From Elusimicrobia bacterium UBA5214 (lineage in GTDB: Bacteria > Elusimicrobiota > UBA5214): a DNA stretch of 64,000 nucleotides. A program made the position numbers and the translations under genes. The notes under the pieces are model-generated. The model worked only from the letters and a program-made list of their open reading frames with translations. It ran no database searches and was not told the DNA's origin. Within the stretch, counting starts at the first letter, position 1. Every line of letters starts with the position of its first letter. Of the stretch, positions 627 through 63,395 are shown in pieces. Where the stretch lies: NCBI GenBank assembly GCA_002412545.1, contig DHVG01000002.1, forward strand, positions 130,095-194,094. The letters run 5' to 3'.

Positions 627-1484
627 ATGCGGAAAATAAGAGTTGAAGAAATAAGCAAAACCGTAAGGAATTTAGCCTTAAAGGCCAATTATCGTATCCG
701 TCCCGATGTAGAGAAAGCATTAAGAAAGATTTACAAAAGGGAATCATCACCCTTATGTAAATGGGCAGTTGCACAAGTTTTGGAGAACCTGCGGATTGCG
801 GAAAGAGAACAAATACCGGTCTGTCAGGATACCGGTTTTGTGGTTATCTTTGTAGAATTAGGTGAAGAGGTAAAAATTGAAGGTAATCTTTATCAGGCAA
901 TTGAAAAAGGAGTAAGGCAAGCATATAAAGAAGGATATTTTCGTGATTCAGTAGTAACTGACCCGCTTCGCCAAACCAACGGACGAACGGACAAACGGTC
1001 TAACGCCAAACGGTTTTCCGAAATCCATCTTGAACTTGTCCCGGGTGACAAATTGAAAATCAATTTAATGCCAAAGGGTGCCGGGAGTGAAAATAACAGT
1101 GCTTATATAAACCTTCTGCCGGGTATTGGGGAAGAAGGGGTAAAAAAATTTGTCCTGGAAACAGTTGAAAAAGGCGCATATACTTCCTGTCCCCCGATAA
1201 TTGTGGGAGTCGGTATTGGCGGTAATTTTGAAACTTGCACATTGTTAGCGAAGAAAGCATTACTCCGTCCTTTAGGTTTACGACATCAAGATTCTTATTA
1301 TGCACAATTGGAAAAGGAAATCTTGAAGGAAATAAATGCTCTTGGTATCGGTGCACAAGGTTTTGGAGGAGGAATAACTGCATTTGATGTTTTTATTGAA
1401 ACTTATCCTTGCCATATCGCTTCCTTGCCGGTAGCAGTAAATTTACAATGTAATGCCTGCCGACATGAAGTAGCCCGGTTCTGA
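627..1484 (+). CDS. Class I (Fe-S) fumarate hydratase / tartrate dehydratase alpha subunit
   Basis: A CQDTG motif and a VVIFVELG...GNLYQAI block are typical of the Fe-S hydro-lyase tartrate/fumarate alpha region. The start is placed at ATG 627 (MRKIRVEE); the longer ORF begins at 525. Confidence 0.8.
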   Translation: MRKIRVEEISKTVRNLALKANYRIRPDVEKALRKIYKRESSPLCKWAVAQVLENLRIAEREQIPVCQDTGFVVIFVELGEEVKIEGNLYQAIEKGVRQAYKEGYFRDSVVTDPLRQTNGRTDKRSNAKRFSEIHLELVPGDKLKINLMPKGAGSENNSAYINLLPGIGEEGVKKFVLETVEKGAYTSCPPIIVGVGIGGNFETCTLLAKKALLRPLGLRHQDSYYAQLEKEILKEINALGIGAQGFGGGITAFDVFIETYPCHIASLPVAVNLQCNACRHEVARF

Positions 1485-3768: not shown

Positions 3769-6700
3769 ATGAGAATTGGTGTTGATATTGGCTCAATAAA
3801 TACAAAAATTGTTCTTCTTGACCAAGAAGATAAAATTATCTGGAAAAGTATCCTTAAACACGAAGGACAACCTTTAGAAATTGTAACTTCTTTTGTAGAA
3901 GAACTTTCTAACCAATTTGTTAGTCAAGATAATCAATTGTCTCTCAGCTTTACTGGTTCAGGAGGTGAATTTTTTGCTCGTCTTTTAGATACAGAATATG
4001 TAAACGAAATTATCGCTCAGACAAAGGCAAGGGAATTTTTATATCCGCAAGTGAAAACGATTATAGAAATCGGGGGAATGAGCACGAAAGTTATATTTTT
4101 TACCGGTGATGGTAAAAATGGGAACATAAATGATTTCGGTATGAATAGTATCTGTGCGGCAGGGACGGGTTCATTTCTTGACCAGCAAGCCAGACGGTTA
4201 GGTCTATCAATTGACGAATTTGGACAGAGAGCGGTGAAAGCAAAAAATATCTCTCGTCTTGCTGGTCGTTGCAGTGTTTTCGCAAAAACGGATATGATTC
4301 ATTTACAGCAAATGGCGACACCGGCAGAAGAAATTGTTGCTGGGTTATGTTTCGCTTTGGTGCGTAATTTCCAAGGAACAATTTTACGGGGGAGGAAAAT
4401 TGAAAAACCAATCCTTTTTCATGGTGGAGTAGCCGCAAATCCAGGGATAATCCGGGCTTTAAGAGAAATATTTGAATTAGATGATACCGCTTTAATTATT
4501 CCTGAATTATATTCTTATTTTAATGCTTTTGGGGCAACATTTTCTAAAAGTAAAGCAAAGAAAACTAATTTAACCGTGCTATTGGAAAAATTAAGGAATT
4601 CGCAAGTTGTCTTTAGACGGAAGACACTCCCACCTCTTAGCTCGGGTATTTTTGCGGACAATTTAAAAAAGACAGATAATAATCTTTTAAATTTTTCTAA
4701 TTTATCAGAAGAGATTAACGCTTACTTAGGTGTTGATGTCGGTTCAATCAGTACAAATTTAGTGGTAATTGATGAACAAAAGAACCTTTTAGCAAAACGG
4801 TATCTCTGGACTGCCGGTCGTCCCTTAGAAGCAATCCAAAAAGGTTTAAGTGAAATAGATAACGAAGTTGGGAAAAAAGTAAAAATTTGTGGTGTCTGCA
4901 CTACTGGTTCAGGTCGCTATCTTACGGCTGATTTTCTCGGTGCGGATATTGTAAGAAACGAGATTACTGCTCAGGCAACTGCAGCTAAAGAAATTGACCC
5001 GCAAGTTGATACAATATTTGAAATTGGTGGACAAGATTCAAAATTTATCACTCTTAAAAATGGTGTGATTACTGATTTCCAAATGAATAAAGTCTGTGCT
5101 GCCGGAACGGGTTCATTTCTTGAAGAACAAGCGGAACGGTTAGGGATGGAAATTGAGCAGGAATTTTCTCAATTAGCTTTAGCCGCGGATTCACCGGCAC
5201 GTCTCGGTGAGCGGTGTACAGTATTTATGGAAGAAGATTTAGTTAATCAGCAACAACAGGGAGTAAAAAAAGAAGATTTAGTTGCTGGACTTTGTTATTC
5301 CATAGTAGAGAACTATTTGAATCGTGTAGTTAGTGAAAAAAAGATTGGTAAAAATATATTTTTCCAGGGTGGTGTTGCTTTCAACCATGGTGTAGTGGAA
5401 GCATTTAAAAAAGTGCTTAAGGAAAGAGTTGGTGAGTGTAAATTTACTGTTCCTGAGCATCACGAAGTTACCGGTGCACTTGGTTGTGCCTTGATTGCTT
5501 TAGAAAATGCGTGTAGTTCAACTGCCGGGCATTGTTTTTCCACTAACTTTAAAGGTTTTGATTTAGCAAAAAGAAAATACGAACTGAAGAGTTTTGTCTG
5601 TCCGGACTGTGCTAATCATTGTGAAATAAAAGAAGTTGTTGTTGAAGGCGAGAAATCTTTATTTTATGGTTCAAGATGCGAAAAATATGAAATTAACCGT
5701 TTTAAAGTGAAAAGAAATATTCCTGACCTTTTTGCTGAACGAGAGAAACTTTTACTTAGCACTTACCATTCACCACTTACCACTTACCACTCACCAATTC
5801 GTATCGGTATTCCCCGCTTTTTTACTTTTTATGAATTTTACCCTTTTTTTAATTGTTTCTTTTCTGAATTAGGTCTGCAAGTAGTTCTTTCTGATTCAAC
5901 CAACCGCAAGATTATTAATCAAGGTTTAGAGAATGTACCGGTAGAATCATGTTTTCCCCATAAGGTAAGTCATGGACATATTTTGAATTTATTAGATAAA
6001 AATGTTGATTATTTATTTCTACCGAGTGTGATTAATTTTCCAGCAATTCAGAAAAGTATTAATAACAGTTTTACTTGTCCTTATGTGCAGACTTTACCTT
6101 ATGTGCTTAAAGTAAGTTTAGAAGAAAAAATAAAAGAAAAAAAGGTAAAAATTCTTCAGCCGATACTGTATTTCAGGGAAGAAAAGTTATTGTTTGAAGC
6201 AATGAAAAGGATAGCCCAACAATTGGGTTTTAAGGGAAAGAAAATAAAAAAAGCTTTCCTCCGGGGACTGGAAATACAAAATACTTTTTCTCAGCAATTG
6301 AAAGAACGCGGTAGAGAAATATTAGAACAATTGTCAGAAAATGAAAAAATTTTCGTTATTGTAGGTCGTTCATACAATAGTTATGATCGGGGGATGAATT
6401 TAGAAATAGTAAAAAAAATAAATAATCTCGGGATACTTACTTTACCGCTTGATTTTCTCCCTTTAGACAATGTGGATATTTCCGAAGAATTCCCGAATAT
6501 GTACTGGCTTTTTGGACAAAGGTTTTTAGCGGCAGCGGAAATAATTAAAAAAGATAGACGTCTCTATCCTCTTTATTTAACAAATTTTGCCTGCGGTCCG
6601 GATTCTTTTATTCTTAAATATTTTAGAGAAAAAATTTTACCTAAACCTTTCTTGGAAATTGAAATTGATGAACATAGTTCCGATGTAGGAATTATTACCC

Positions 6701-8064
6701 GTTTAGAAGCTTTTCTTGACAGTATTAGTGATTCCAAATTCCAAATTCTCCATCCTCCGTCCCCCCTGCTTCGCTTTGCGAAGCAAAGCGGGAGGGACTG
6801 CGGAGGACGGGCAAATTTCAAATCTCAGATTTCTATGGCTACCAGTTTTCACTTTACTCCTTCCACCTTACACCGTAATTGTACTCTTTACATTCCTAAT
6901 ATGTGTGACCATGCGCATATTTTAGCAGCGGCATTTCAGGCATTCGGAGTAGATGCAGATGTCCTTCCGGAATCCGACGAAGAAAGTATCTGCTGGGGTA
7001 AGAAATATACTCTCGGCAAAGAGTGCTATCCTTGTATTCTCACTACCGGAGATATGGTGAAAATTATCAAAAGTAAAGATTTTAATCCAAAAAAAATAGC
7101 ATTTTTTATGCCTTCCGGATGTGGTCCTTGTCGTTTTGGACAATACAATTATCGTCAACGATTAGTATTGAAAGAGTTGGGTTATCCGGAAATACCCATA
7201 TATGCTCCTAACCAAGATGAGAATATTTTTCGTGACTTAGGTATTGTTGGTGGCAACGGTTTTGTGCGTTTAGCTTGGCAGGGAATAGTCGCTGGAGATA
7301 TTCTCTTCAAAACTCTTTGTAAATTTCGTCCCTATGAGATAAACCGAGGAGAAAGCGATAAAATATATCAAGAATCTTTGCGGGGAATATATCAGGTAGT
7401 CAAAGAAAAAGGAGACCTCTTAGGGGTAATGAAAAAAATAAACAAACAATTTCAAAATATTCCCCTTGACCGTAAAAAGAAAAAACCTAAGATTGGTATT
7501 GTTGGAGAAATATATATCCGTTCAAATCGTTTTAGTAACTACAACTTAATCCGCACTTTGGAAGATTTGGGTGCGGAAGTTTATCTGACGCCAACTACTG
7601 AATGGTTATATTATGTCAATTATCTCAACCAGCGGCGTTCCTGGGGAAAGAAAAGTTATTTAGAATTTCTCTCTTTCTGGATTAAGGAAAAATATCAGAA
7701 GTCCGATGCCCATAGTTTGGAATGTTGTTTTGCTGATATTCTCTCTAATGGTAAGGAACCTTCAACTAAAGAAATACTGAATTATGCGAGTCCTTACCTT
7801 CATCCTTCTTATGAAGGGGAAGCAATCTTGAGTATTGGTAAAAGTATTGAATTTTTGAAAAACGGGCTTAAAGGAATAATCAATGTATTACCTTTTACTT
7901 GTATGCCTGGCACGATAGCTACGGCAATCTTGAAAAAAGTTAGACAGGATTATACTGGTTTTCCTTGTTTAAGTATTATTTACGATGCCCAGGACGACCC
8001 TTTTCTGAAGACCAAATTGGAAGCATTTATTTATCAAGCTCAAGGATACGGAAGTCGGGAATGA
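3769..8064 (+). CDS. Giant fusion of two BadF/BadG/BcrA/BcrD (HgdC-type) ATPase domains with a 2-hydroxyacyl-CoA dehydratase D-component-like domain (CoA-substrate-specific enzyme activase family)
   Basis: Two repeats of the VDIGS..T.. / CAAGTGSF / GGVA.N activase ATPase signature at about aa 1-260 and 320-570. A Cys cluster (CPDCANHC) is followed by an HgdB/DUF2229-like region. The gene carries two in-frame repeat insertions (5761-5800, 6757-6810). Confidence 0.8.
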   Translation: MRIGVDIGSINTKIVLLDQEDKIIWKSILKHEGQPLEIVTSFVEELSNQFVSQDNQLSLSFTGSGGEFFARLLDTEYVNEIIAQTKAREFLYPQVKTIIEIGGMSTKVIFFTGDGKNGNINDFGMNSICAAGTGSFLDQQARRLGLSIDEFGQRAVKAKNISRLAGRCSVFAKTDMIHLQQMATPAEEIVAGLCFALVRNFQGTILRGRKIEKPILFHGGVAANPGIIRALREIFELDDTALIIPELYSYFNAFGATFSKSKAKKTNLTVLLEKLRNSQVVFRRKTLPPLSSGIFADNLKKTDNNLLNFSNLSEEINAYLGVDVGSISTNLVVIDEQKNLLAKRYLWTAGRPLEAIQKGLSEIDNEVGKKVKICGVCTTGSGRYLTADFLGADIVRNEITAQATAAKEIDPQVDTIFEIGGQDSKFITLKNGVITDFQMNKVCAAGTGSFLEEQAERLGMEIEQEFSQLALAADSPARLGERCTVFMEEDLVNQQQQGVKKEDLVAGLCYSIVENYLNRVVSEKKIGKNIFFQGGVAFNHGVVEAFKKVLKERVGECKFTVPEHHEVTGALGCALIALENACSSTAGHCFSTNFKGFDLAKRKYELKSFVCPDCANHCEIKEVVVEGEKSLFYGSRCEKYEINRFKVKRNIPDLFAEREKLLLSTYHSPLTTYHSPIRIGIPRFFTFYEFYPFFNCFFSELGLQVVLSDSTNRKIINQGLENVPVESCFPHKVSHGHILNLLDKNVDYLFLPSVINFPAIQKSINNSFTCPYVQTLPYVLKVSLEEKIKEKKVKILQPILYFREEKLLFEAMKRIAQQLGFKGKKIKKAFLRGLEIQNTFSQQLKERGREILEQLSENEKIFVIVGRSYNSYDRGMNLEIVKKINNLGILTLPLDFLPLDNVDISEEFPNMYWLFGQRFLAAAEIIKKDRRLYPLYLTNFACGPDSFILKYFREKILPKPFLEIEIDEHSSDVGIITRLEAFLDSISDSKFQILHPPSPLLRFAKQSGRDCGGRANFKSQISMATSFHFTPSTLHRNCTLYIPNMCDHAHILAAAFQAFGVDADVLPESDEESICWGKKYTLGKECYPCILTTGDMVKIIKSKDFNPKKIAFFMPSGCGPCRFGQYNYRQRLVLKELGYPEIPIYAPNQDENIFRDLGIVGGNGFVRLAWQGIVAGDILFKTLCKFRPYEINRGESDKIYQESLRGIYQVVKEKGDLLGVMKKINKQFQNIPLDRKKKKPKIGIVGEIYIRSNRFSNYNLIRTLEDLGAEVYLTPTTEWLYYVNYLNQRRSWGKKSYLEFLSFWIKEKYQKSDAHSLECCFADILSNGKEPSTKEILNYASPYLHPSYEGEAILSIGKSIEFLKNGLKGIINVLPFTCMPGTIATAILKKVRQDYTGFPCLSIIYDAQDDPFLKTKLEAFIYQAQGYGSRE
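5761..5800. repeat. In-frame tandem repeat (CACTTACCA family) inside the BadF-fusion gene
   Basis: acttaccattcaccacttaccacttaccactcaccaattcg encodes STYHSPLTTYHSPI. Confidence 0.85.
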
Positions 8065-8689: not shown

Positions 8690-10318
<1,629 letters not shown>

Positions 10319-10372
10319 GAAATAGTTGATAGTTATTAGTGTATAGTTAATAGTTAAAACGGTTTAACACAG

Positions 10373-13576: not shown

Positions 13577-14275
13577 TTGCAAATGATTAGTGATAATCTA
13601 AAAAAAGTACAAGAAAAAATAAATTTTACTTGTCAGAAAATTGGACGTAATCCAGAGGGAATAATTTTAGTTGCGGTAACAAAAAATGTGCCGGTAGAAA
13701 AAATTAAAGAAGTAATTTTTTTAGATGTAATAAACATTGGTGAAAACCGTGTGCAGGAAGCGCTCAAGAAGTATAGCGAATTAGCCATTAGCCATCAGCC
13801 ATCAGCTATCAGCCAAGTTAAATGGCATCTGGTTGGACATTTGCAAAAGAATAAAGTAAAATATGCCTTGAAAATATTTGACCTGATTCACTCAGTTGAC
13901 GATTTTGAGTTAGCCGAAGAAATTGATAAACAGGCAAAAAAAATTGGTAAAATCCAGGATTGTCTAATTGAAATAAAAGTTTCACCGGAAGTGACTAAAT
14001 ACGGTTGTCCACCCGAACCGGAAGAAGTTAAAAAGTTAATTGAGCGAATTAGCGAATTAGCGAATATTCGTATTCGTGGTCTAATGGCAATGGCACCGTT
14101 TTTTGAAAAATCCGAAGAGACTCGTCCCTATTTCCGTCAAGCATTTGAATGCTACTCGTTACTTGCTACTCGCTACTCGCTTACTTACTTATCAATGGGT
14201 ATGTCTAATGATTTTACTATTGCTTTAGAAGAAGGTGCAAATATGTTGCGTATTGGCACAGCTATATTTAAGTAA
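13577..14275 (+). CDS. yggS: YggS-family PLP homeostasis protein (alanine racemase N-terminal fold)
   Basis: ILVAVTKNVPVEKI..., GENRVQE and MGMSNDF.IA..EGAN.LRIGTAIF match. It lies upstream of proC, as in many bacteria. Two in-frame tandem-repeat insertions (13781-13815, 14151-14192). Confidence 0.8.
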   Translation: MQMISDNLKKVQEKINFTCQKIGRNPEGIILVAVTKNVPVEKIKEVIFLDVINIGENRVQEALKKYSELAISHQPSAISQVKWHLVGHLQKNKVKYALKIFDLIHSVDDFELAEEIDKQAKKIGKIQDCLIEIKVSPEVTKYGCPPEPEEVKKLIERISELANIRIRGLMAMAPFFEKSEETRPYFRQAFECYSLLATRYSLTYLSMGMSNDFTIALEEGANMLRIGTAIFK

Positions 14276-17197: not shown

Positions 17198-18319
17198 ATG
17201 AAAATTGATGATTTATTGCGTTTGATGGTTTCAAACCGTGCTTCAGATTTGCATTTGAAAGCCGACACTCGTCCTTTATTGAGGATAGACGGAGAACTGA
17301 TTCCCGAGGATAAATTACCTGAATTTTCCAGTGCAGAAATCTGGGAACTGGTTTGCCAGATGATTGGCGAAGAGCAAAAAGATAAATTCACTCAGGAAAA
17401 AGAATTAGATTTTGCCTATAATCTATCCGGTTTAGCAAGATTTCGTGTAAACACCTATCTACAAAGAGGACAAATTGGTGTTTCAATAAGGGCGATTCCC
17501 TGGGATATTCCTACCTTAGATAAATTGGGATTTCCACCAGTGATTAAGGAGTTAGCTCTTAAACCGAGAGGTTTGGTCTTGGTCACCGGTCCGACGGGAA
17601 GCGGAAAATCAACAACTCTCGCGGCAATCATCAATTATATCAATGTTAATCGGCGTTGTCAGATAATTACTATTGAAGACCCGATTGAGTTTGTGCATAA
17701 AAATAAATTGAGTAATATTGACCAGCGCGAGTTAGGTAGTGACACTCTCTCCTTTGCTAATGCTTTGAAACATGTCCTCCGACAAGACCCGGATGTAATT
17801 TTAGTTGGTGAAATGCGCGACTTGGAAACAATCGCTTTAGCGATTACTGCTGCGGAAACCGGGCATCTAGTTTTTTCTACTTTGCATACTACGGGTGCGG
17901 CAGCAACCATTGACCGGATTATTGATGTTTTCCCACCAACTCAACAATCTCAGGTAAGGTTGCAAATTGCTACACTCTTGGAGGGGGTAATCTCTCAGAT
18001 TCTTTTACCCTGTGCGGATAGTAAAGGAAGAGTTGCTGCTTTAGAGATTATGATTTCTACTCCGGCGATTCGCAATCTTATCCGGGAGAATAAAGTTTTT
18101 CAGATTTCTTCGGTGATGCAAACCGGTGTTTCTTCAGGAATGCAGACACTTGACCTTGCTTTGAAGAAACTATGTGAAGAAAAACTGATTACTTACGAAG
18201 AAGCATTAACTAAGTGCAGCGAGCCGGAACAGTTTCAAAAAATGCACTCTGCGGGTAAATTCAGAGAGACCAAATTTAGTTCCCCAGCACCAATTTCTGG
18301 CAATGTCGTTCCTGCATAA
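17198..18319 (+). CDS. pilT: Type IV pilus retraction ATPase PilT
   Basis: Walker A GPTGSGKST, ITIEDPIEF, the Asp box and GMQT..L are PilT/PilU family motifs. Confidence 0.85.
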   Translation: MKIDDLLRLMVSNRASDLHLKADTRPLLRIDGELIPEDKLPEFSSAEIWELVCQMIGEEQKDKFTQEKELDFAYNLSGLARFRVNTYLQRGQIGVSIRAIPWDIPTLDKLGFPPVIKELALKPRGLVLVTGPTGSGKSTTLAAIINYINVNRRCQIITIEDPIEFVHKNKLSNIDQRELGSDTLSFANALKHVLRQDPDVILVGEMRDLETIALAITAAETGHLVFSTLHTTGAAATIDRIIDVFPPTQQSQVRLQIATLLEGVISQILLPCADSKGRVAALEIMISTPAIRNLIRENKVFQISSVMQTGVSSGMQTLDLALKKLCEEKLITYEEALTKCSEPEQFQKMHSAGKFRETKFSSPAPISGNVVPA

Positions 18320-22997: not shown

Positions 22998-24710
22998 TTA
23001 CATTTTTTCCGGTGCAGAAACACCGATTAAGTCCAACCCGGTTCGGATAATTGTTCTTACTGCTTCTACTAAACTTAGCCGGGCTAAAGTCAAATTCCTA
23101 TCTTCGGAAATTACCCGATATTTTTCGTAATAACGGTGGAACAAATTAGCCAACTCCAAGAGATAGACCGCTAAATTGTGCGGACTTAAATTTTCTGCAC
23201 AAGTTACCAGAATATCCGGGAAAAAAGAAAGTTTTTTTATTAAGTCAAGTTCTGATTTTTCTTTCAATAGTTGATAGTTGATAGTTAATAGTTGATAGTT
23301 GATTCCTTCTTTTTCTGCCTGACGGAAGATACTTACTGCACGCGTATGTGCGTATTGGATATAGTAGACCGGATTTTCCGGGGATTGTTTCTTTGCCAAG
23401 TCAAGGTCAAATTGTAATTGTGCTTCCGGTGAACGGGTAAGAAAGAAATAACGACAGGCATCTTTTCCTACCTCATCCAGTAATTGTCGCAGAGTAACAA
23501 ATTCACCTGCCCGGGTAGACATTGCTACCGGTTGTCCTTCACGGATAAGACTTACCAACTGGTAAAGAATAATCTGTAACTGCTCCGGTTTGTAACCGAG
23601 GGCTTTTATTCCGGTTTTCATCCGGGCAATGTATCCGTGGTGGTCAGCTCCCCAGAGGTTGATTAGGCGGTCAAATTTTCGTTCCAATTTATCCCGGTGG
23701 TAGGCAAGGTCACCAGCTAAATAAGTTGGACGGCCGTCAGCACGAATCAGAACCCGGTCTTTCTCATCGTTCCCTAAGGTAGATTTGAACCATAAAGCAT
23801 TGTCTTTTTCGTAGGCATATCCCTTCTCTTTCAGTTGAGAAATTGTCTCTTCCACTTTTTTCTTTTGGTAAAGGTCGGACTCGGTGGACCAAATATCAAA
23901 TTTAATACTAAAATCTTCCAAATCTTTTTTGATGTCTTCAAGGTTTTCTTCCATAGCGATTTTGGAAAAATAACTTTCTGGTTTCTTTTCTATATCGGCT
24001 GGAGTAAGAACTCCTGCTCTTTCTTGACGGGCTATCTTTGTAGCCATTTCTATAATATCCTTTATATACTCCCCACGGTATGCAGCATTATTTAACCATT
24101 CTTCTTCTTCCGGTGTTAATTTCTTCTTAAATATGAATTCTTTTATTCTTAATTTTACCGTTTTACCTAAGTTTTCAATCTGGTTGCCGATATCATTGAT
24201 ATAATACTCCCTTTTTACTTCCCAACCGAGAAAAGAAAAAATTCTGGCTAAAGAATCACCGATTGCTGCACCTCTGCCGTGTCCGACATGGAGCGGACCG
24301 GTAGGATTTGCCGAGACAAATTCAAAAAGTATTTTTTCTCTTTTACCTAAGTTTGTTTTTCCATAATTTTTTCCTTGTCCTAAAATTGTTTTTAATTCTT
24401 GATAAACTCTTTCTGGAGCAAGAGAAAAATTGAGAAAAACCGGGGGCATAAATTCGACTTTAACGAACGGAGAAGAGGGAGTGATAAGTGAAGGGATAAT
24501 TTTATTGGTAATCTCCATAATCTCCACGGCTGGTTTATCTATCTCCTGACTAATAATTGAAACAATATTACATGACCCATCAGCAGAAATGTGTGCAGGT
24601 GGAATTTCTACCGTAGGTTTTGGTAGTTTTCTATTCTCAGGAATAATTTTTTCTTTTTTTAGTTGTTCAATCAGCTGGTCAATAAAAGTATAAATTTCTT
24701 CTTTAATCAT
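22998..24710 (-). CDS. argS: Arginine--tRNA ligase
   Basis: Class I HIGH motif (PTGPLHVGHGRG), the anticodon-binding DALK domain and a C-terminal ...VSAPEKM. It contains an in-frame TAGTTGA tandem repeat (23266-23303). Confidence 0.95.
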   Translation of the reverse strand: MIKEEIYTFIDQLIEQLKKEKIIPENRKLPKPTVEIPPAHISADGSCNIVSIISQEIDKPAVEIMEITNKIIPSLITPSSPFVKVEFMPPVFLNFSLAPERVYQELKTILGQGKNYGKTNLGKREKILFEFVSANPTGPLHVGHGRGAAIGDSLARIFSFLGWEVKREYYINDIGNQIENLGKTVKLRIKEFIFKKKLTPEEEEWLNNAAYRGEYIKDIIEMATKIARQERAGVLTPADIEKKPESYFSKIAMEENLEDIKKDLEDFSIKFDIWSTESDLYQKKKVEETISQLKEKGYAYEKDNALWFKSTLGNDEKDRVLIRADGRPTYLAGDLAYHRDKLERKFDRLINLWGADHHGYIARMKTGIKALGYKPEQLQIILYQLVSLIREGQPVAMSTRAGEFVTLRQLLDEVGKDACRYFFLTRSPEAQLQFDLDLAKKQSPENPVYYIQYAHTRAVSIFRQAEKEGINYQLLTINYQLLKEKSELDLIKKLSFFPDILVTCAENLSPHNLAVYLLELANLFHRYYEKYRVISEDRNLTLARLSLVEAVRTIIRTGLDLIGVSAPEKM

Positions 24711-26420: not shown

Positions 26421-26991
26421 AGAGCCGATTTTGGTAAATATATTCTTCTACATTCCCAGGGACAAAATATTTTATACTTTTCCCTTCACCGATATATTCT
26501 CTAAGTTCTTTACTGGAAATATCTAAACCAAGAAGGGGGAAAACAGTGACCTTTTTAAGGATTTCCTTTTTTACTTTCTCAGTTGGAACTCCCGGGCGCA
26601 TACCGACAATGAATGAACATAATTCTAATATTTTTGTTCCTTTTTCCCAAGTATCAATTTCAAGCAGTGTATCCGAACCAATAAGAAAAAAAAGTTCATC
26701 TTTTGGGTATTTTCGTTTAAAAAAGTTTATTGTTTTGTAAGTGTAAGATTTACCTTTACTCTTTAATTCAAATGGGGAAAGAGAAAAGTATTTATTGTTT
26801 TGAATCGCCAGTTTTACCATCTGGTAGCGGTCTTCTGCTGGAGCAAGGTCAGAAACTTTATGTGGCGGCTTACCCGCAGGAATAAAAATAACCTGGTCTA
26901 AATTGAGGTATTCTCTTGAGGTTTCGGCTAGAATCAAATGTCCGTAATGAATTGGGTTAAAACAACCACCGAATAATGCAATTTTCATCAT
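26407..26991 (-). CDS. nadD: Nicotinate-nucleotide adenylyltransferase
   Basis: IALFGGCFNPIHYGHL (H/T-x-G-H nucleotidyltransferase) and SDTLLE motifs. Confidence 0.85.
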   Translation of the reverse strand: MMKIALFGGCFNPIHYGHLILAETSREYLNLDQVIFIPAGKPPHKVSDLAPAEDRYQMVKLAIQNNKYFSLSPFELKSKGKSYTYKTINFFKRKYPKDELFFLIGSDTLLEIDTWEKGTKILELCSFIVGMRPGVPTEKVKKEILKKVTVFPLLGLDISSKELREYIGEGKSIKYFVPGNVEEYIYQNRLYGKK

Positions 26992-27092
26992 TCCGTTATT
27001 TCCGTTGAGTCCGTTTTGACCGTTTAGTCGGTTATTTCCGTTGAGACCGTTGAACGGGCTGAACGGACTAAACGGATTAAACGGACTTAACG
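26992..27092. repeat. Roughly 100-bp hairpin built from CCGTT/AACGG heptamer-like repeats. It fills the entire proA-nadD intercistronic gap.
   Basis: The left half is (tccgtt[atg]n)x6 and the right half is (aacgg[agt]n)x6, so the two halves are reverse complements. Confidence 0.85.
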
Positions 27093-30225: not shown

Positions 30226-30564
30226 TTATGAGTATCTTTCTTCTTGTCCAGTATGCAATTCAGGAGAATAAAGCTCGTATGTTGATAAATGGTGTTCATA
30301 CCTCACTAATTTTTCTTTTTCCAGTTGATACAATATATAGTCAAGTTCGTCAGTCGGTATATCCGAGAATGCCTGGGCTATCTCCTCACGAGAAAACACT
30401 CTGGTTCCCGGTACTTTTTGTTGTTCTTTCCTCAGCCAATTGAGAACGCTTAGTTTTCTTTTTTCCTTTCTTCCTACAAACCATTTCCATAATAACTTGT
30501 AAAGTAGATTGATAATTTTTCCTTTCACTTTTCTATTTTTCCACTTTCGGATAAATGCCGTCAA
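30226..30564 (-). CDS. Small basic hypothetical protein (possible wHTH regulator) overlapping the R-M gene start
   Basis: Lys/Arg-rich N-terminus and C-terminal SREEIAQAFSDIPTDELDYILYQLEKEKLV. It overlaps the start of 30533-33658 by 32 nt. Confidence 0.3.
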   Translation of the reverse strand: MTAFIRKWKNRKVKGKIINLLYKLLWKWFVGRKEKRKLSVLNWLRKEQQKVPGTRVFSREEIAQAFSDIPTDELDYILYQLEKEKLVRYEHHLSTYELYSPELHTGQEERYS

Positions 30565-33500
30565 TTAGTTTCTGGACTTCAATTGTCTTTTGAAGAGCGG
30601 TGACAATCTTGCAATAAGGTTTTATGTCGTTAAGTGTAGTTCCTATCTTGTCCTTCAGCCATTTATCACAAACTTGATAACCTCCGATTTGGTATTTCCA
30701 GATTTCTGGTTTTATGCCTTCAAAATATTGTTCATTATTTATATAAACTCGTCCTTTTTCATATTTTACTTTTTCAATTTTGTAATTTCCTTTACCTTGA
30801 AATTTAGCAACCGGTGGGTCGAGTTCCGCTGATTTAAGTAAATGTAAGTCAACCAGCCTTTTTCCATATTCAGCCATTTTACTGAAAAGTTTGTAATCTT
30901 TCGTTAAAGGAATTCTCGGGAAATCCATCTTTAGAAACTCGGCGTATCTTGTTCGGTAGATATTTGAGTAAAGAATAGCATAAACATAAAAGAAGATTTG
31001 TTCCGGAGACGGTATTTTTTTAAACTCTTTGGTTAATTGTTCGACTATTTCCGGAGAGAGGTTCGGTTTTTTTGCTCCGTAATCTGCTTGTGGTTCAAAG
31101 AGCATTATAACACTGCCTAAAGACCGTTTTTTAGGATTATCCTTTTTTTCTTGATATAGGTAAAGAGGGAAAAGGTAATTTATATCAAGGGCAGTAATAG
31201 ATGTTGCACCTGCAACAACTTTATCTGTAACAAAGGCATATCTCCAATCTTCTACACTTCTTGACCGTCTAATGGTAATTAAACCTAAATTTTCTCCTGC
31301 CAGCATATGGTACATAATTTCTGGACGGGGCATACAATGAAAACCACGGGATTTGCCGGTGTAATAGGTATATCTTATATCAAAAGGTCGGTATAAAATT
31401 GGTACTATTTTCTTTTTGTCTAATCCACTTTCTTCTAAATCCTTCTGAGCCAGTTCAACTTTCCAATCTCTTGCGTCTTTACCAAGGCTGTAAGCCTGCC
31501 TTGCCAATTCCGGATCAAGTTTTGAAAAGTTTAAAATAGTTTGCCAAACTTCTTCCGGTTTCCATTTGATAGTCAAATTGTCCCTCGCCGTAACTATCCC
31601 TACACTGTTAGCAAGAAAGATGTCAGTTATCTTTGGATATGAGTAGTATAACTTGAAAAGTTTTCTTTCCGTTGGAATAAAACGATAAAAAAACTCCGAT
31701 TTTAGTGATATTTTTTGCCATTTAGTTGTTTTTATATCATTTTTCAAAAGCCAATCATACTTTTTTTCCTGCAATCCCCAAAGGTCTGAATGATGAACTT
31801 CGCACTCTCTCTTTTCATCTTTCTTTTTTATGAAAAGGGCAATCGCTACTCCCTGTCGAATATCAAAGACATTTCCATCTTTAGACCCGTCAGGACATTT
31901 CCCTTTTTCTTTCGTAATATTGCCATGCAAATCTAAAATATAAATTTCATTGAAACTATTCATCAGGGATTGTCGCATTCCTCTAAAAGTTGGATTATCC
32001 AGATAACTATGATTGGTAATAAATCCTAAAATTCCTTCACCTGCTTGGTCAATTTTCCACTGGGCAAAACGAATGAATTTTACATAATCATCTTGTAGCC
32101 ATTTAGGATTTTTTTCGCCAAGCGGTTTACCATCCACCTGATAGTAAACTTTAATTTCTTTTGAAATCCATTCACCTACATTATAGGAATGTCCCGAATA
32201 AGGCGGATTGCCAAAAATAACTAAAATTGGTGTTTCCTTTTTTACCTTGCCTGCCAAATGAGATTCCTCAGAAAGGGAAACCATACCCGGAAGTTCGGTC
32301 TGGGCGAGTTCTTCCATTTCCAAAGTATTGGTTAGATAGAGTTTAAACCGGTCGTCATCCTTGAGTTCGTAGCCGAGTTCTTCTAAGAGAAAAGACATTT
32401 TGAGGTGTCCTACTGCGTAAGGTGCCATCATCAATTCAAAAGCATAAAAATTTTTGAGGATATGTTCTCTGATAAGATTTTCTTTTCCACCTTCTCCATA
32501 TTTGTGAACAAATTCATTTACTACTAATTTAGATGCTTCTGCTAAAAAAGTAAGTGTTCCTGCCGCAGGGTCCAAAACGGTAACTAATTCGCTTGCAAAT
32601 CCATCCTTTCTATTAAAATGTTCCTTCAAAATACGATGCAAAGAACGAACGATATAAGATACGACGGGTTCTGGTGTGTAATATACGCCCCTCTTTTCTC
32701 TTGTTTGTGGGTCATATTCAGCCAAGAAGGTTTCATAAAAGTGGACAATTGGGTCTTTACCTTTGCCTTCATGAAAATATTTGTGAAGGATATTTTTTAC
32801 ATCAGTAACTGCTAATACTTCTGAAATATCATCAATAATCCATTCCATTTGTTGGGAAGGTTTACCCAGTGAAATAAAATGAAAAACATCCCTTAGAATA
32901 CCTATAGTTGGTGGAATCTTATCGTAGGCAAGTTTTCTATTAAACTCGTTTTCTGAACGAGTTCGGGCAGCAAAAAGTCCGTAGGTAATGGTTTGGGAAT
33001 AAAGGTCAGCAAAATCCTCTTTTGTAAGACCACTTATTAGATATTTTCTGAATGCTTCATAAAATCCTAAAATAAATCCTTTTCCTATTTCTTCTTCTTC
33101 TTTTAGTTCTTGGGCAACGACTTCGTCTCTAAGGAAACGTGTCCTATTTGCTAATTCAATTGCTAGTGTTTTAGCATCATAAACCTTTGGCAAAGAAAAA
33201 GAAAAGAATTTCTCAAGCAGTTTAACAAAATCCTGTTCTTTTTCAACAGGTGGCACTGTTTTAAGTTTATGAACAATAAAGGGTCTACCAATAAGAACTT
33301 TATCTATTAAAGTACCGTTGTGATAACGTCTGAATTCAAAAAAGTTAGTTAATATAAGATTGGGGAAGGTATGCCGATAGCGTTTTAACTGTTCCGTTTC
33401 TTCTGTCTGGTCTAAATCCTCGTTCTTTGGTTCCTTGGCTTCAATATACCCAACGATATGCTGACTTCCATCCCAGACCCTGAAGTCAGGATTACCGGCT

Positions 33501-33658
33501 TCAGTTTTCTTTGGTAGAGTGGTAATATGGATATTTTTTTTGCCGACCGATTCTATATATTCCTGTAGTAATCCTTCAAGGATTGAGTAGTAACTCTCTT
33601 CCCTTGCGTCTCCATGTTGGGCAACTCCAAAGATTTTTTCTAAATATGCTTTCAACAT
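30533..33658 (-). CDS. MmeI-like Type IIL/IIG restriction-modification enzyme: N-terminal PD-(D/E)xK nuclease, N6-adenine MTase and a C-terminal TRD
   Basis: DFRVWDGSQHIVGYIEAKEP is a D-x13-EAK nuclease motif at the N-terminus. MTase motif I is VLDPAAGTLTFL and motif IV is IFGNPPYSG (NPPY). Total length is 1041 aa. Confidence 0.75.
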   Translation of the reverse strand: MLKAYLEKIFGVAQHGDAREESYYSILEGLLQEYIESVGKKNIHITTLPKKTEAGNPDFRVWDGSQHIVGYIEAKEPKNEDLDQTEETEQLKRYRHTFPNLILTNFFEFRRYHNGTLIDKVLIGRPFIVHKLKTVPPVEKEQDFVKLLEKFFSFSLPKVYDAKTLAIELANRTRFLRDEVVAQELKEEEEIGKGFILGFYEAFRKYLISGLTKEDFADLYSQTITYGLFAARTRSENEFNRKLAYDKIPPTIGILRDVFHFISLGKPSQQMEWIIDDISEVLAVTDVKNILHKYFHEGKGKDPIVHFYETFLAEYDPQTREKRGVYYTPEPVVSYIVRSLHRILKEHFNRKDGFASELVTVLDPAAGTLTFLAEASKLVVNEFVHKYGEGGKENLIREHILKNFYAFELMMAPYAVGHLKMSFLLEELGYELKDDDRFKLYLTNTLEMEELAQTELPGMVSLSEESHLAGKVKKETPILVIFGNPPYSGHSYNVGEWISKEIKVYYQVDGKPLGEKNPKWLQDDYVKFIRFAQWKIDQAGEGILGFITNHSYLDNPTFRGMRQSLMNSFNEIYILDLHGNITKEKGKCPDGSKDGNVFDIRQGVAIALFIKKKDEKRECEVHHSDLWGLQEKKYDWLLKNDIKTTKWQKISLKSEFFYRFIPTERKLFKLYYSYPKITDIFLANSVGIVTARDNLTIKWKPEEVWQTILNFSKLDPELARQAYSLGKDARDWKVELAQKDLEESGLDKKKIVPILYRPFDIRYTYYTGKSRGFHCMPRPEIMYHMLAGENLGLITIRRSRSVEDWRYAFVTDKVVAGATSITALDINYLFPLYLYQEKKDNPKKRSLGSVIMLFEPQADYGAKKPNLSPEIVEQLTKEFKKIPSPEQIFFYVYAILYSNIYRTRYAEFLKMDFPRIPLTKDYKLFSKMAEYGKRLVDLHLLKSAELDPPVAKFQGKGNYKIEKVKYEKGRVYINNEQYFEGIKPEIWKYQIGGYQVCDKWLKDKIGTTLNDIKPYCKIVTALQKTIEVQKLIDGIYPKVEK

Positions 33659-33668
33659 TTTATTCTTT

Positions 33669-34664
33669 TCAATGTTTAGTTTTCTTTTTTTCCCTCTCTC
33701 TTAAACACATCTCAGCAGCGAGTTTAACTGCGGAGAACATCGGGCGTGCGTCAGCGAGATTTTTACCGGCAATGTCAAAAGCAGTGCCGTGTCCGGGTGA
33801 AGTGCGAATGAAGGGCAAACCAAGGGTAACATTGACTAAAGAATAAGGGTCAAGCAGTTTTAGAGGTATCATTGCCTGGTCGTGATACATTACAATAATT
33901 AAATCATATTTTTTCCACCACTGGAAAACCGTATCTGCCGGTAAAGGACCTGTAACTTGCAACTTGTAACCTGTAACTTGTTTGATTGCCGGGATGATTA
34001 TCTCTTTTTCTTCCTTACCGAGAACTCCGCCTTCGCCGCGGTGCGGATTTAAGGCACAAACCGCAATTCTTAGTTTAGCAATAGAGAAATATTTTTCTAA
34101 TGCTTTGGCTCCAAGTTTAATTGCCAAAATAATTTTTTCTTTAGTTAAACTATTAGCGACATCTTTTAAAGGTAAATGCCGGGTAACCATTGCTACTTTA
34201 AGTTTTTTGTTCACCATCAGCATAAGCAAATTCTTTTTCCCGGTTAATTCAGCAAGGATTTCGGTATGTCCGGAATAATTCAATCCGGCACGGTTTAATG
34301 CTTCTTTAGATATCGGTGCAGTAACCAAACCGTCCACCTGTCCATTCTGCACCAATTCTACTGCTTTTTTGATATATTCATAACTTAATTGTCCATACTC
34401 AGAGTTAGTCATACCGAAGTTTAGTTTCCTAATCTTGCCGATATTGATTAATTCAAATTCTCTATTGGAAACGACTGGAGGGTATTTTTTAAGATAAAAG
34501 TCTAAAACTGATTTTGTACCGATAACTACCGGTTGGCAAATTTGGTAAACTTCTTTCTTGGCAAGTGTTTTGATGACTATTTCCGGACCGATACCTGCAG
34601 GGTCACCGATTGTGATTGCAAGAGACGGCTTTTTACTCAATTTCGCTAATTTTGATTGTAGCAT
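33669..34664 (-). CDS. pdxA: 4-hydroxythreonine-4-phosphate dehydrogenase
   Basis: ITIGDPAGIGPEIV, HTE, NPHRGEGG and SPGHGTAFDIAGK are PdxA signatures. It contains an in-frame repeat (33949-33980). Confidence 0.85.
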   Translation of the reverse strand: MLQSKLAKLSKKPSLAITIGDPAGIGPEIVIKTLAKKEVYQICQPVVIGTKSVLDFYLKKYPPVVSNREFELINIGKIRKLNFGMTNSEYGQLSYEYIKKAVELVQNGQVDGLVTAPISKEALNRAGLNYSGHTEILAELTGKKNLLMLMVNKKLKVAMVTRHLPLKDVANSLTKEKIILAIKLGAKALEKYFSIAKLRIAVCALNPHRGEGGVLGKEEKEIIIPAIKQVTGYKLQVTGPLPADTVFQWWKKYDLIIVMYHDQAMIPLKLLDPYSLVNVTLGLPFIRTSPGHGTAFDIAGKNLADARPMFSAVKLAAEMCLREREKKKTKH

Positions 34665-35703
34665 TACTCCTTAATTGTTTTAAGAAATCCTGATATATTT
34701 TTTCTGCTTTACTCCGATAGAGATACTCTTGTAACTCTTCCTTCACTTCGCTATAAGTGAGTTTACTTTTTGCTTTTTTCTCTTCACATTTGATTAAATG
34801 ATAACCAAAATCAGTCTCCACAATATCGCTTACTTCGCCCACCGGTAAGGAAAAGGCAACTTTTTCAAATTCGGGAACCATATCGCCGTGGACAAAAAAA
34901 CCGAGGTCGCCGCCTTGTTCTTTACTTCCCGGGTCTTCAGAATATTTTCGTGCTAATTCACTGAAATCTTCACCGTTTTTAATCTTTTGTTGGATTTCTT
35001 TGATTTTGTTCAGTGCAGTTGTCTTATCCTGCATACTGGCATTTTTTTCTACCCGAATAAGAATATGTCTCACTCGGACACGTTCAGCAGTGCGCCGCTG
35101 AAAGAATTTGGCTAAACTGGCAATTTCATTTTCTTCTTCAGCGGATAGATTTGGGTCTTGTTTCCCGTCAATTTGGTCAACAATTTTATCGTACAATTTT
35201 GTAGTTTCTTCTTCTTTGGGTACCCCCACTTTCGCTTTTATTTCTAAATCAATAAGTTTAATCACCATCAATTGGTCCTGGATTCTTTTTTCAAAATCAG
35301 TTTCAGTTAAAGATTGTTTTTTTAATTCGGTTTGGAAATCTTCCGGGTTAGGGAAACGTTTTTTTACTTCGTTGACCCCATCCTCAATCTCTCTTTTGGC
35401 AACCACAATTTTGCGTTTCTTTGTCTCCTGAAGTAAGATTTTTTCGTCAATCATCTGATTGAGGACATCTTTTTTTAACTGACGGATTTTTTCCGTAGTT
35501 TGTTCACTTGCCGGGGTTAAAAGTTTATATTGTTCAACTAATGGCTGGACATTTTTTTCTAACTCGGAGAGAAGGATTGCCTCACCATTAACCATAGCGA
35601 TAGTTTTATTTACCACCGTTTTCTCTTGAGCAAGGACTGACTGAGTCAGTAACCAATAACCGATAACCAGTAACCAATAACCGAATTTCAAGGATTTCTT
35701 CAT
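34633..35703 (-). CDS. SurA/PrsA-like periplasmic chaperone with a parvulin PPIase domain
   Basis: Signal peptide and a parvulin block VRHILI...GGDLGFF..G.M...F...AF.L..GEVS..V.T.FGYHLIK. The signal peptide itself is encoded by the tandem repeat LVIGYWLLVIGYWLL. Confidence 0.7.
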   Translation of the reverse strand: MKKSLKFGYWLLVIGYWLLTQSVLAQEKTVVNKTIAMVNGEAILLSELEKNVQPLVEQYKLLTPASEQTTEKIRQLKKDVLNQMIDEKILLQETKKRKIVVAKREIEDGVNEVKKRFPNPEDFQTELKKQSLTETDFEKRIQDQLMVIKLIDLEIKAKVGVPKEEETTKLYDKIVDQIDGKQDPNLSAEEENEIASLAKFFQRRTAERVRVRHILIRVEKNASMQDKTTALNKIKEIQQKIKNGEDFSELARKYSEDPGSKEQGGDLGFFVHGDMVPEFEKVAFSLPVGEVSDIVETDFGYHLIKCEEKKAKSKLTYSEVKEELQEYLYRSKAEKIYQDFLKQLRSNATIKISEIE

Positions 35704-48537: not shown

Positions 48538-49110
48538 TTATTCCTCCAGTAATTTGGCGATTCTCTCGCTTAATTCTTCGGTACCAAACGGTTTAGGAAG
48601 ATAATCGTCAGCACCGGCAGCAAATATCTTTTCCCGATTTTCCGGCGAATCATAGCCGGTGATTGCTAAAATTTTCATTTCTTTTGTCTTTTCATTACTG
48701 CGGATATTCCGACAGACCTGGAAACCATCAATTCCGGGAAGCATTAAATCAAGAATGATTAAATCCGGTTCAAATTCAGAAAGTTTTTGCCCGGCTTGGA
48801 AACCATCCATAGCCGAAGCAAACTGATATTTTTCCGGTAATTTTTTCAAAAAACGAGTGATAAGATTAATAATCGCTTGGTCGTCATCAACAACTAAAAT
48901 TTTTTTTCTACCATCCTCAAGTAATTCTTTGGGAATAGGCATAGCGTATTTTTTCAAGAATTCAAGTAAGTCATCTTTTCTTACCCGGCGATGTCCTCCG
49001 GGTGTGTAGAAAGCTTTGAGTTCACCGGCATCAATCCAATCAGCTACGGTGGTAGGAGAAGCACCACAAATTTCACTGATATCAAAAGTGCTGTATGTTT
49101 TTTCCGCCAT
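48538..49110 (-). CDS. MerR/excisionase-type HTH fused to a receiver domain (DNA-binding response regulator)
   Basis: N-terminal FDISEICGASPTTVADWIDAGELKAF..GGHRRVRKDDL HTH. The receiver is ~80% identical to the C-terminal receiver of 45933-47507. Confidence 0.75.
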   Translation of the reverse strand: MAEKTYSTFDISEICGASPTTVADWIDAGELKAFYTPGGHRRVRKDDLLEFLKKYAMPIPKELLEDGRKKILVVDDDQAIINLITRFLKKLPEKYQFASAMDGFQAGQKLSEFEPDLIILDLMLPGIDGFQVCRNIRSNEKTKEMKILAITGYDSPENREKIFAAGADDYLPKPFGTEELSERIAKLLEE

Positions 49111-49229
49111 TTATTTACCGCTTTTGCTGTTTTTACCGCTTAATCAGATTATACCGCTTTTACTGTTTTTGTCAAGGGTTTTTTGGAAAGATTTTTTTGC
49201 TGCAGAGGAACCCTAAAGTGTGGGTAAGT

Positions 49230-50066: not shown

Positions 50067-50152
50067 ATCTAATCCTTACTGTCTCGGTACAACTCTCAAA
50101 AATTCAGTCAACGCTTTTGCACTTTGCTTTTGTTCACTACGTTTCAGAAAAA

Positions 50153-50240
50153 AGGTGGTTAGGTGGCTAAGTGGTCAGGTAGTTAGTTTAAACCTAATAA
50201 CTTCCTTACTTCACTTACTCACTTAACCACTTAACCACTT
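50153..50240. repeat. Inverted pair of heptamer tandem arrays (GGTGGTTA... / ...TTAACCAC). One arm encodes the C-terminus and stop codon of the PfkB kinase gene.
   Basis: ggtggttaggtggctaagtggtcaggtagttagtt - taaacctaataa - cttccttacttcacttactcacttaaccacttaaccac. Confidence 0.8.
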
Positions 50241-54900: not shown

Positions 54901-54928
54901 ATCTGTTTGATAAGATTTATGATATTTT

Positions 54929-54980
54929 CACCCTCTCCTTAATCCTCTCCCCTTGAGGGAGAGGGACGGGGTGAGGGGGA
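54929..54980. repeat. GC-rich compound palindromic element with core cctctccccttgagggagagg
   Basis: The 21-bp core is the exact reverse complement of the core at 46589-46609. Flanking C-run/G-run arms are also inverted. Confidence 0.85.
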
Positions 54981-54981
54981 A

Positions 54982-56001: not shown

Positions 56002-56375
56002 AGTTTCGTAAAACAGACTTTCCTCCAGTCACAGGAAAAGCAGGCAAATTCTTGCCATTTAGGTAATATCTTTGATATCTTACTTTTTATTTTTCTCCAG
56101 AGAAGAGCATCTCCTTTTTTTAAATTTAACAATTTTAATGCCATTTTATCAAGTGCTTCTATTTCTTTTTCATAACCGGGTTTATAAATACAGATATTTG
56201 TTTTCAGATGTGGACAATACGCACATACTGCATCTGCACCGTCAACAATTTTTGTTTTTGTATCGTTTTCTAAATTTTTGATGATACCTTTAAGATTAGA
56301 TATAAACTTTTTACTATATCCTTCACCTTCAAAGAAATGTAAACAGATGAGATGGTGTCCACGCAGTTTAATCAT
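55998..56375 (-). CDS. Cys-rich DUF1284-like protein
   Basis: MIKLRGHHLICLHFF... with CAYCPH and CFSCDW Cys pairs. Confidence 0.45.
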   Translation of the reverse strand: MIKLRGHHLICLHFFEGEGYSKKFISNLKGIIKNLENDTKTKIVDGADAVCAYCPHLKTNICIYKPGYEKEIEALDKMALKLLNLKKGDALLWRKIKSKISKILPKWQEFACFSCDWRKVCFTKL

Positions 56376-56380
56376 TTACT

Positions 56381-56462
56381 CAGTTAATTCGGTTTAGTCG
56401 GTTAATTCTGTTTGGTCCGTTCAACGGTCATAACGGACATAACCGACAAAACGGACAAAACA
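56381..56462. repeat. CCGTT/AACGG heptamer-array hairpin between DUF1284 and pyrD (same family as 26992-27092)
   Basis: ttaattcggtttagtcggttaattctgtttggtccgtt | caacggtcataacggacataaccgacaaaacggacaaaac. Confidence 0.85.
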
Positions 56463-63350: not shown

Positions 63351-63395
63351 TCTCCATCTCTCCTTACTTTCCTAACTTTCTAACTCTTTAACTAT

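Follow-up and report, generated by a model that had tools for sequence, protein, structure and literature searches.

Tandem heptanucleotide arrays within and between housekeeping genes of an Elusimicrobiota bacterium

What are the short repeats that recur in unrelated genes of one bacterial genome, and how did they arise? This question is raised by a 64,000 nt stretch of the Elusimicrobia bacterium UBA5214 (contig DHVG01000002.1, positions 130,095 to 194,094 of the forward strand; hereafter the window). In this DNA, related repeats had been noticed in a giant BcrAD_BadFG/DUF2229 activase gene, in pyrD and at the end of the kinase gene pfkB. The initial annotation took them for arrays of a ten-base unit, CACTYACCAC, and implied a family of insertions that might recognize a short target-site motif. 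We find that the arrays belong to a much larger population of degenerate tandem repeats, mostly of 7-base units, which are probably simple-sequence repeats. Those located within genes stay in frame and occupy variable loops or linkers of the encoded enzymes.

Repeats are indeed present at all three sites, both by inspection of the sequence and according to Tandem Repeats Finder (TRF; Table 1). In the activase gene and in pyrD the unit is the 7-mer CACTYAC, such that the supposed ten-base unit equals one and a half heptamers, and the unit at the pfkB end (CACTTAAC) is an 8-mer. Sequences matching CACTYACCAC with at most one mismatch occur 14 times in the whole window compared to 3.0 expected occurrences, a number reached in none of 100 shuffled sequences; 9 of the 14 lie in the heptamer arrays of the activase gene and pyrD. 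Using the activase array as Smith-Waterman query against both strands of the window, the pyrD array was the top match with a score of 47 and 28 of 31 positions identical without gaps. The pfkB-end array came second with a score of 33 that required gaps; background scores over the window had a median of 10 and a 99.9th percentile of 33. Within the window the three arrays are each other's best matches. The proposed kinship consequently stands for the activase and pyrD arrays, which share one heptamer, and is weaker for the pfkB end with its octamer and gapped alignment. The octamer is a plausible relative of a CACTTAC heptamer with one inserted base per unit, because 7-mer and 8-mer units interconvert at the orthologous loop 2 of PyrD (see below). 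Both orientations are found with respect to the genome strands. With respect to the genes, in contrast, the unit is sense in the activase gene as well as in pyrD, and both arrays have the peptide HSPLTT[Y/S]HSP in common. The activase array is read as LSTYHSPLTTYHSP and lies in the linker that joins the BcrAD domain to the DUF2229 domain. The overlap of the third array with pfkB comprises the last 8 codons and the stop codon (50215-50217) rather than the last 10 codons.

At a score of at least 40, TRF returned 36 arrays in the 64 kb, including 15 with period 7, 5 with period 8 and 4 with period 9. A periodicity detector found long runs at periods 7, 8, 9 and 14 only, and none in 20 shuffled sequences. 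Curation resulted in approximately 28 arrays of period 7, 8 or 9, mostly with 7-base units. In these arrays the units of 7 nt (less often 8 or 9 nt) follow each other head to tail, with about 4-6 copies per array; period-7 arrays with 4-6 copies are found by TRF at 5754-5796, at 56755-56785 and at about 14 further sites. TRF match percentages between 73 and 96% reveal that the arrays are degenerate. The window has a G+C content of about 37% and 91% of it lies in open reading frames (ORFs). The GroEL encoded here belongs to a 90% cluster in which all named proteins are assigned to an Elusimicrobia or Elusimicrobiota bacterium. Eighteen of the 28 arrays are located inside intact housekeeping ORFs with strong Pfam support, encoding fumarase, the BcrAD/DUF2229 activase, a YggS-like protein, ArgRS, PdxA, a SurA-like protein, PurM, PyrD, PyrK (three arrays), PyrC and PurD. 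The other ten lie in or across the non-coding 9%, where the array density is about 5.6-fold above that of coding DNA. Several units recur: AGCCATC is found at three loci (yggS, purM, pyrC), CACTYAC at two (activase gene, pyrD) and ATAGTT[GA] at two (argS and after groEL, here in the opposite sense). An AACGG core is retained across periods 7, 8 and 9.

All 18 coding arrays are read through in frame as peptides with a period of 7 or 8 amino acids (predicted examples are HSPLTTSHSPVFGGLSGPAIK and PSAISQQPSAIK). Because 7 is coprime with 3, an array of 7-nt units is read in all three frames in turn and yields a 7-residue period per 21 nt. At four places the consensus units would create an in-frame stop codon, and in four out of four a substitution removes it. 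In the purD array, only 2 mismatches occur within 31 nt, both of them at a would-be in-frame TGA (changed to TTA and TCA). The single would-be TAA of the pyrK arrays is changed to TCA, and one would-be stop is substituted in the YggS-like gene. In antisense orientation, stop codons would be present in 13 of the 18 coding arrays. The sense orientation of most coding units can be attributed to these stops, such that no directional mechanism is needed. The sense strand of the coding arrays contains 31% C and 13% G, compared to 17% C and 21% G for ORFs overall. The reading frames and substitutions indicate that the gene-internal arrays are translated and under selection.

Comparison with repeat-free proteins indicates that the arrays replace variable loops and linkers, at a net change of 0 to +4 amino acids, rather than being inserted into them. 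The activase linker with its array is as long as that of 8 repeat-free homologues (43-54% identity; 0 amino acids). Loop 2 of PyrD aligns without gaps to the Lactococcus lactis dihydroorotate dehydrogenase B (1ep1; 0 amino acids). The array loop of PurM is 2 amino acids longer than in Escherichia coli PurM (1cli), and that of PyrC 4 amino acids longer than in the Aquifex aeolicus dihydroorotase (3d6n). In an AlphaFold model of PyrD the barrel is confident, and the predicted local distance difference test (pLDDT) score falls below 50 at residues 132-176 and 233-254, which are both array loops; given a shallow alignment and one non-array loop that also scored low, these scores are supportive only. 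When proteins were searched with the activase linker region, the identical protein was recovered, and the nearest matches beyond it lie at 48-56% identity, too distant for following the recent history of the array at 5754-5796.

Within the window, no flanking sequence is common to arrays of the same unit in different genes, and neither target-site duplications nor terminal repeats accompany them. Since such arrays share nothing outside the array itself, a conventional mobile element is excluded. The implied insertion family with a target-site motif is not supported: neither flank similarity nor target-site duplications were found, the arrays are not net insertions, and the three arrays are part of a population of about 28 with many different units. 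The sequence evidence argues that the motif is not a mobile element. A miniature inverted-repeat transposable element (MITE) or repetitive extragenic palindromic (REP)-like element was rejected given the lack of defined ends, of target-site duplications and of net insertion against the repeat-free homologues (0, 0, +2 and +4 amino acids). CRISPR repeats were rejected as well, the units being contiguous and devoid of spacers.

We compared the window with a Joint Genome Institute (JGI) copy of the same genome (L005) and with syntenic loci of related species. The loci L006, L008 and L131-L133 are from relatives with a PyrD that is 68-78% identical; a PyrD search of genome contigs gave relatives at 34-61% identity. 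In L006, L008 and L131-L133 the array density is similar to that of the window and the arrays often lie at orthologous sites, and the more distant loci L001, L003 and L004 are without such arrays. Loop 2 of PyrD provides the most detailed series. Its unit is CCACTCA (4.4 copies) in the window and in L008, CACCAAT (5 copies) in L131, the octamer CCAATTCA (4 copies) in L132 and L133, and a decayed octamer in L006, at a nearly constant total length and with a CACCA core common to all. Such a series is what one would expect of a single array that evolves in concert while its length is constrained. Orthologues of the loop-1 array (57074-57096) vary in copy number as well as in unit (4 copies in L008, 8 in L132, AGGCACG with 3 copies in L133). 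In pyrC the AGCCATC unit is kept in the window, L006 and L008. The purD array at 63559-63589 is identical in L006 and is continuous with the conserved TNGG codons, as expected for growth from local sequence. At the C-terminus of PfkB the array-encoded QKVVKWLSE, followed by the stop, has the same length as EETITAIKA in L008. Clusters of differences between L008 and its near-identical strain L009 were considered as array changes and rejected, since they correspond to an N gap plus strain variation at a contig end. Likewise, a split of purD in L005 is no repeat-induced frameshift: a run of N at L005 3483-3492 (about 64010-64019 in window numbering, just past the window end), an assembly gap, makes gene callers divide purD into two ORFs.

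The CACTYAC unit itself is widespread. At least 120 metagenome stretches contain (CACTYAC)x3, over a wide range of G+C content (37-72% among the matches listed), and some of the contigs carry several other heptamer arrays; absence elsewhere, which the initial annotation had named as a refuting outcome, is not what was found. The PyrD homologues P0041, P0052 and P0082 from other lineages (about 50% identity) contain 7-residue periodic peptides, for example HSKELRAMSCELRA, in loop 1 after the SCPN motif. These sequences indicate that neither the CACTYAC unit nor translated heptamers are unique to the clade.

Three of the intergenic spacers are made up of inverted arrays, and their RNA folds into long hairpins. 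The hairpin at the pfkB end contains in its 5' arm the final 8 codons of pfkB (50215-51183) together with the stop codon; it has a folding energy of -32.2 kcal/mol (z -3.1, none of 200 shuffled sequences as good) and is directly followed by UUUUUU on the minus strand. In its build, a stable stem-loop with a U-tract right behind it, this hairpin resembles an intrinsic terminator. The long hairpins are missing from the output of a consensus terminator scan, whose limits on stems and loops they exceed. Other intergenic arrays are unstructured (z from +0.35 to +1.7).

Table 1. Positions of the arrays, their host genes and the hairpin-forming spacers. Coordinates are those of the window unless a locus is named.
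Feature	Position	Strand	Unit and remarks
Heptamer array in activase gene	5754-5796	+	CACTYAC (TRF consensus CACTCAC/CACTTAC); ~6 copies, TRF period 7/14/21
Host: BcrAD_BadFG/DUF2229 activase gene (1431 amino acids)	3769-8064	+	
Short heptamer array in activase gene	6731-6748	+	ATTCCAA; beside nested GC-rich palindrome (~6749-6812)
Heptamer array in pyrD, loop 2	56755-56785	-	sense CTCACCA/CCACTCA (TRF: TGGTGAG); TRF period 7, 4.4 copies; read as HSPLTTSHSP
Host: pyrD	56473-57501	-	
Heptamer array in pyrD loop just after SCPN motif	57074-57096	-	CAAAGAG/AGCAAAG; read as SKEPRAKS; adjoins nested GC-rich palindrome
Exchanged patch in pyrD	L132 873-972 vs L133		alignment columns 393-493
Octamer array at pfkB end	50205-50240	-	CACTTAAC/CTTACTCA; TRF period 8
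Hairpin of two inverted octamer arrays at pfkB end	50149-50243	-	AGGTGGTT 50153-50186; CACTTAAC 50205-50240
Whole intergenic spacer of inverted 9-mer arrays, long hairpin	26986-27092	-	TCCGTTNNN / NNNAACGGA; -40.6 kcal/mol, z -4.8
pyrD-DUF1284 gene spacer of inverted 9-mer/18-mer arrays, possible hairpin	56375-56461	-	AACGGAC family; -24.8 kcal/mol, z -2.9
Heptamer array in YggS-like gene (13577-14275)	13783-13815	+	AGCCATC; read as AISHQPSAIS
Octamer array in YggS-like gene	14038-14065	+	AATTAGCG
Heptamer array in YggS-like gene	14151-14181	+	GCTACTC
Heptamer array in purM	52227-52260	-	sense CATCAGC (= AGCCATC unit); read as SAIRRQPSAIS
Heptamer array in pyrC	61218-61251	-	sense CAGCCAT (= AGCCATC unit); read as PSAISQQPSA
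Heptamer array in argS	23267-23303	-	sense CAACTAT; read as INYQLLTINYQL
Intergenic heptamer array directly 3' of groEL stop	10321-10357	+	AATAGTT/ATAGTTG; unstructured
Heptamer array in pdxA	33951-33981	-	sense AGTTACA
Heptamer array in N-terminal hydrophobic segment of SurA-like gene	35650-35682	-	sense TTGGTTA
pyrK array	59487-59521	-	ACTCATA
pyrK array	59662-59693	-	CACTTTA
pyrK array	59751-59784	-	8-mer ATCACCCA
Heptamer array in purD, adjoining conserved TNGG motif	63559-63589	-	sense AACGGTG/GGTGAAC
Second purD array	63726-63745	-	TAATCAC
Octamer array across purD stop and spacer before purE	63366-63422	+	ACTTTCTA; unstructured, sense strand purine-rich
Degenerate octamer array in fumarate hydratase gene	978-1014	+	AACGGACA
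Two adjacent intergenic heptamer arrays, adjoining start codon	45832-45890	+	ATTTCCG; TCAATCA; weak fold, z -1.9

Overall, the arrays are probably simple-sequence tandem repeats of the kind known as short tandemly repeated repetitive (STRR) sequences or heptanucleotide simple sequence repeats (SSRs), abundant in one Elusimicrobiota clade. Features of these repeats that are present here include at least 3 tandem 7-nt copies, a unit at several dispersed loci and arrays common to related genomes. Slipped-strand mispairing or unequal exchange between units would create the arrays and keep them homogeneous, and short-tract recombination may occasionally replace an array. Purifying selection would pass only variants that keep the frame, lack an in-frame stop, lie in a tolerant loop and preserve its length. 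The no-stop filter would fix the sense orientation of most units, and no function would be required of the gene-internal arrays. Several observations weigh against this explanation. A single slippage step of +7 or -7 would frameshift an essential gene, which leaves the route to length-neutral arrays unexplained. Five arrays are identical among the strains L008, L009 and L010 (99.3-99.9% identical; a small sample), so that slippage is not fast and the arrays are not hypermutable on that scale. Among 18 units there are 4 identical pairs (P ~0.001 for units drawn from the window's own 7-mers), a recurrence across unrelated genes that purely local slippage does not predict. The PurM site carries AGCCATC in the window and the unrelated GTTACAC at equal length in L008. 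The pyrD genes of L132 and L133, which are from different samples, agree at 100% of their DNA outside a single patch of about 100 nt, in which 8 copies of AGCCAAG/AGCAAAG stand against 3 copies of AGGCACG, together with diverged non-repeat flanking codons; this suggests a short-tract homologous replacement centred on the array. For the inverted array that follows pfkB, intrinsic termination is the probable, predicted role. The recurrence of units, the PurM site and the exchanged patch would all be accommodated if a shared unit repertoire were written into loops by ectopic gene conversion, templated break repair or a dedicated enzyme. Such copying would also agree with replacements that are length-neutral rather than +21-nt insertions, and with the occurrence of (CACTYAC)x3 in many unrelated metagenome contigs, similar to an argument made for TAACTGA repeats (PMC4679880). 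We nonetheless regard templated spread as unlikely. The arrays lack shared flanks, target-site duplications and terminal repeats, orthologous arrays often have a core in common as if descended from a single array, and the purD array runs on from conserved native codons. Moreover, the diverged pyrD patch includes non-repeat flanks and thereby resembles ordinary homologous recombination from a related lineage, and the window yielded no candidate for such an enzyme. It is similarly doubtful that an active process in the clade replaces linkers and surface loops in core enzymes, at unchanged length, with arrays from a small shared repertoire of 7-8-nt units. Gene conversion between arrays or templated patch repair would be the means, and breaks at the arrays themselves may be the trigger.

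The concentration of arrays between genes raises the tentative possibility, to which we attribute some weight, that they are functional cis-elements: either sites where a protein recognising 7-9-nt units binds to DNA or RNA, or RNA modules such as terminators, mRNA stabilisers or translation modulators, with the gene-internal arrays as by-products. The three spacers with significant hairpins, one of them followed by a U-tract, agree with this idea, as do the AACGG core kept over periods 7, 8 and 9 and the several arrays that adjoin start codons like the TAACTGA repeats of Beggiatoaceae. Against it stand the many different units, the difference of units between orthologous sites, the unstructured intergenic arrays and an Rfam scan of the window in which no array matched any family. 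Coding heptanucleotide repeats can also phase-vary, being translated at copy numbers divisible by three (PMC13001214), so that heptamer copy number might switch genes on and off by frameshift as for neuO of E. coli K1. For the present arrays such contingency loci are very improbable: the hosts are single-copy housekeeping enzymes (pyrC, pyrD, pyrK, purM, purD, argS, pdxA, fumarase and similar), the arrays are short and degenerate and in most cases lie within the gene instead of at its 5' end, and the five arrays of L008, L009 and L010 show no copy-number difference in this small sample. Chance low-complexity sequence or an assembly artefact deserves next to no weight. The data do come from metagenome assemblies, and the apparent purD split was an N gap. 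However, no arrays are found in shuffled sequences and the ORFs are intact, and an artefact is refuted by the same arrays in independent samples and assemblies and in orthologues of related species.

Placing the arrays among known systems, the closest likeness is to tandem heptanucleotides. Mazel et al. (1990) reportedly described STRR heptanucleotides of heterocystous cyanobacteria as few unit families at many loci, common between co-directional genes. The present arrays are alike in being tandem heptamers from few unit families dispersed in one lineage. They differ in belonging to Elusimicrobiota with about 37% G+C, in their units, in having about two thirds of the arrays within ORFs and translated, and in the additional periods 8 and 9. 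The G-rich heptamers of Xanthomonas and Nostoc are the same kind of object. According to the survey of Mrazek (2007), as cited in PMC4679880 and PMC4692102, heptanucleotides are the most abundant class of longer-unit SSRs in most surveyed bacterial genomes, slippage has been proposed for their origin, and units most likely to occur in coding regions are multiples of three. Our arrays share the favoured period of 7 and the proposed slippage origin with these long SSRs, but core genes here often contain non-triplet units that stay in frame. TAACTGA direct repeats occur in marine Beggiatoaceae, cyanobacteria and Bacteroidetes with 2-6 copies, mostly in intergenic regions near start codons, and stop codons dictate their orientation within ORFs (PMC4679880). 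The heptamer period, the orientation set by stops and the presence of one unit in unrelated phyla are common to both systems. In contrast, one unit dominates there and many are found here, and neither hairpin-forming inverted arrays nor a systematic replacement of loops is described for TAACTGA. Geobacter metallireducens possesses 49 elements with four tandem heptanucleotides GGACCGG within and between genes (PMC2700814). Alike are the arrays of about four heptamers dispersed inside and between genes; the Geobacter unit is a single GC-rich one read as a regulatory RNA element, with translation and loop context not analysed there. In neuO of E. coli K1 an AAGACTC array of 3-53 perfect copies at the 5' end phase-varies (PMC13001214). 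It is likewise a heptanucleotide array inside a coding sequence that is translated when in frame, whereas the present arrays are short, degenerate and stable among strains, with housekeeping hosts. In Borgs, the units of tandem repeats within ORFs are multiples of three in length and the repeats form near-perfect insertions, unlike the 7-8-nt units here, which replace loops with little length change. The likeness is that Borg tandem repeats supply proteins with new, probably disordered peptide segments; they evolve fast (PMC9879509). We found no report of such arrays for Elusimicrobiota in the literature. What is unusual here is that so large a share of the arrays lies in frame in core enzymes, that loops are replaced in a length-neutral way and that units recur across genes.

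A number of further features were observed in the window and its relatives. Two GC-rich imperfect palindromes stand out in this genome of 37% G+C, at 56990-57075 (pyrD, sense on the minus strand) and at about 6749-6812 (plus strand, activase gene). Both lie beside heptamer arrays and are translated in frame, the one in pyrD within a 38-residue extra loop after SCPN. Their DNA folds have -27.7 (pyrD) and -22.5 kcal/mol (activase), with z values of -4.4 and -4.1. Both begin with (G)TCCCCCC(C)TGCTT; as their mutual alignment is otherwise weak, we did not adopt them as one family. The palindromes recall Rickettsia palindromic elements and small dispersed repeats nested in cyanobacterial heptamer arrays. 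Another GC-rich hairpin with C-runs and G-runs is located between pyrE and pyrF (54919-54990, -33 kcal/mol). In L008 a GC-rich hairpin lies at 10086-10183 in the 3' part of purM, where the protein diverges from that of the window, and L131 carries a shorter one at the pyrD loop-1 site (760-829). Between pyrK and pyrD, a 568-residue ORF (57548-59254, minus strand) has an N-terminal hydrophobic segment and no Pfam match. This slot holds a P-type ATPase in L008 and is empty in L006, so that it is a variable position in the pyr operon. The gene at 48538-49110 encodes a response regulator. Immediately upstream of it, three 18-nt direct repeats (AAAACAGTAAAAGCGGTA-like; 49114-49175, minus strand) enclose a sigma-70-type promoter match without any mismatch (TTGACA-16-TATAAT, 12/12), an arrangement that could be an autoregulatory operator. 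The only Rfam match in the window is a cyclic di-GMP-I (c-di-GMP-I) riboswitch (RF01051, 16933-17067, plus strand, 59.8 bits, E 3.6e-9) upstream of an ORF at 17198-18319. A 1041-residue Type ISP restriction-modification enzyme (N6_Mtase + Type_ISP_C) is encoded among housekeeping genes at 30533-33658 (minus strand).

If the recurrence of units did reflect templated spread, it would point to an undescribed way of rewriting protein loops. Likewise, if loops are actively overwritten, essential proteins would carry rapidly exchangeable, repeat-encoded loop cassettes, sometimes with nested GC-rich palindromes. For the annotation of Elusimicrobiota proteins, the arrays account for peculiar stretches of low complexity and for differences in length. 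Orthologous sites within the clade form a natural series along which the homogenisation of repeats, the change of units from 7 to 8 nt and the constraint on loop length can be traced. Non-triplet simple repeats can thus be common in essential bacterial genes, where they are read in all three frames as loop peptides with a 7-residue period and are held open by selection.

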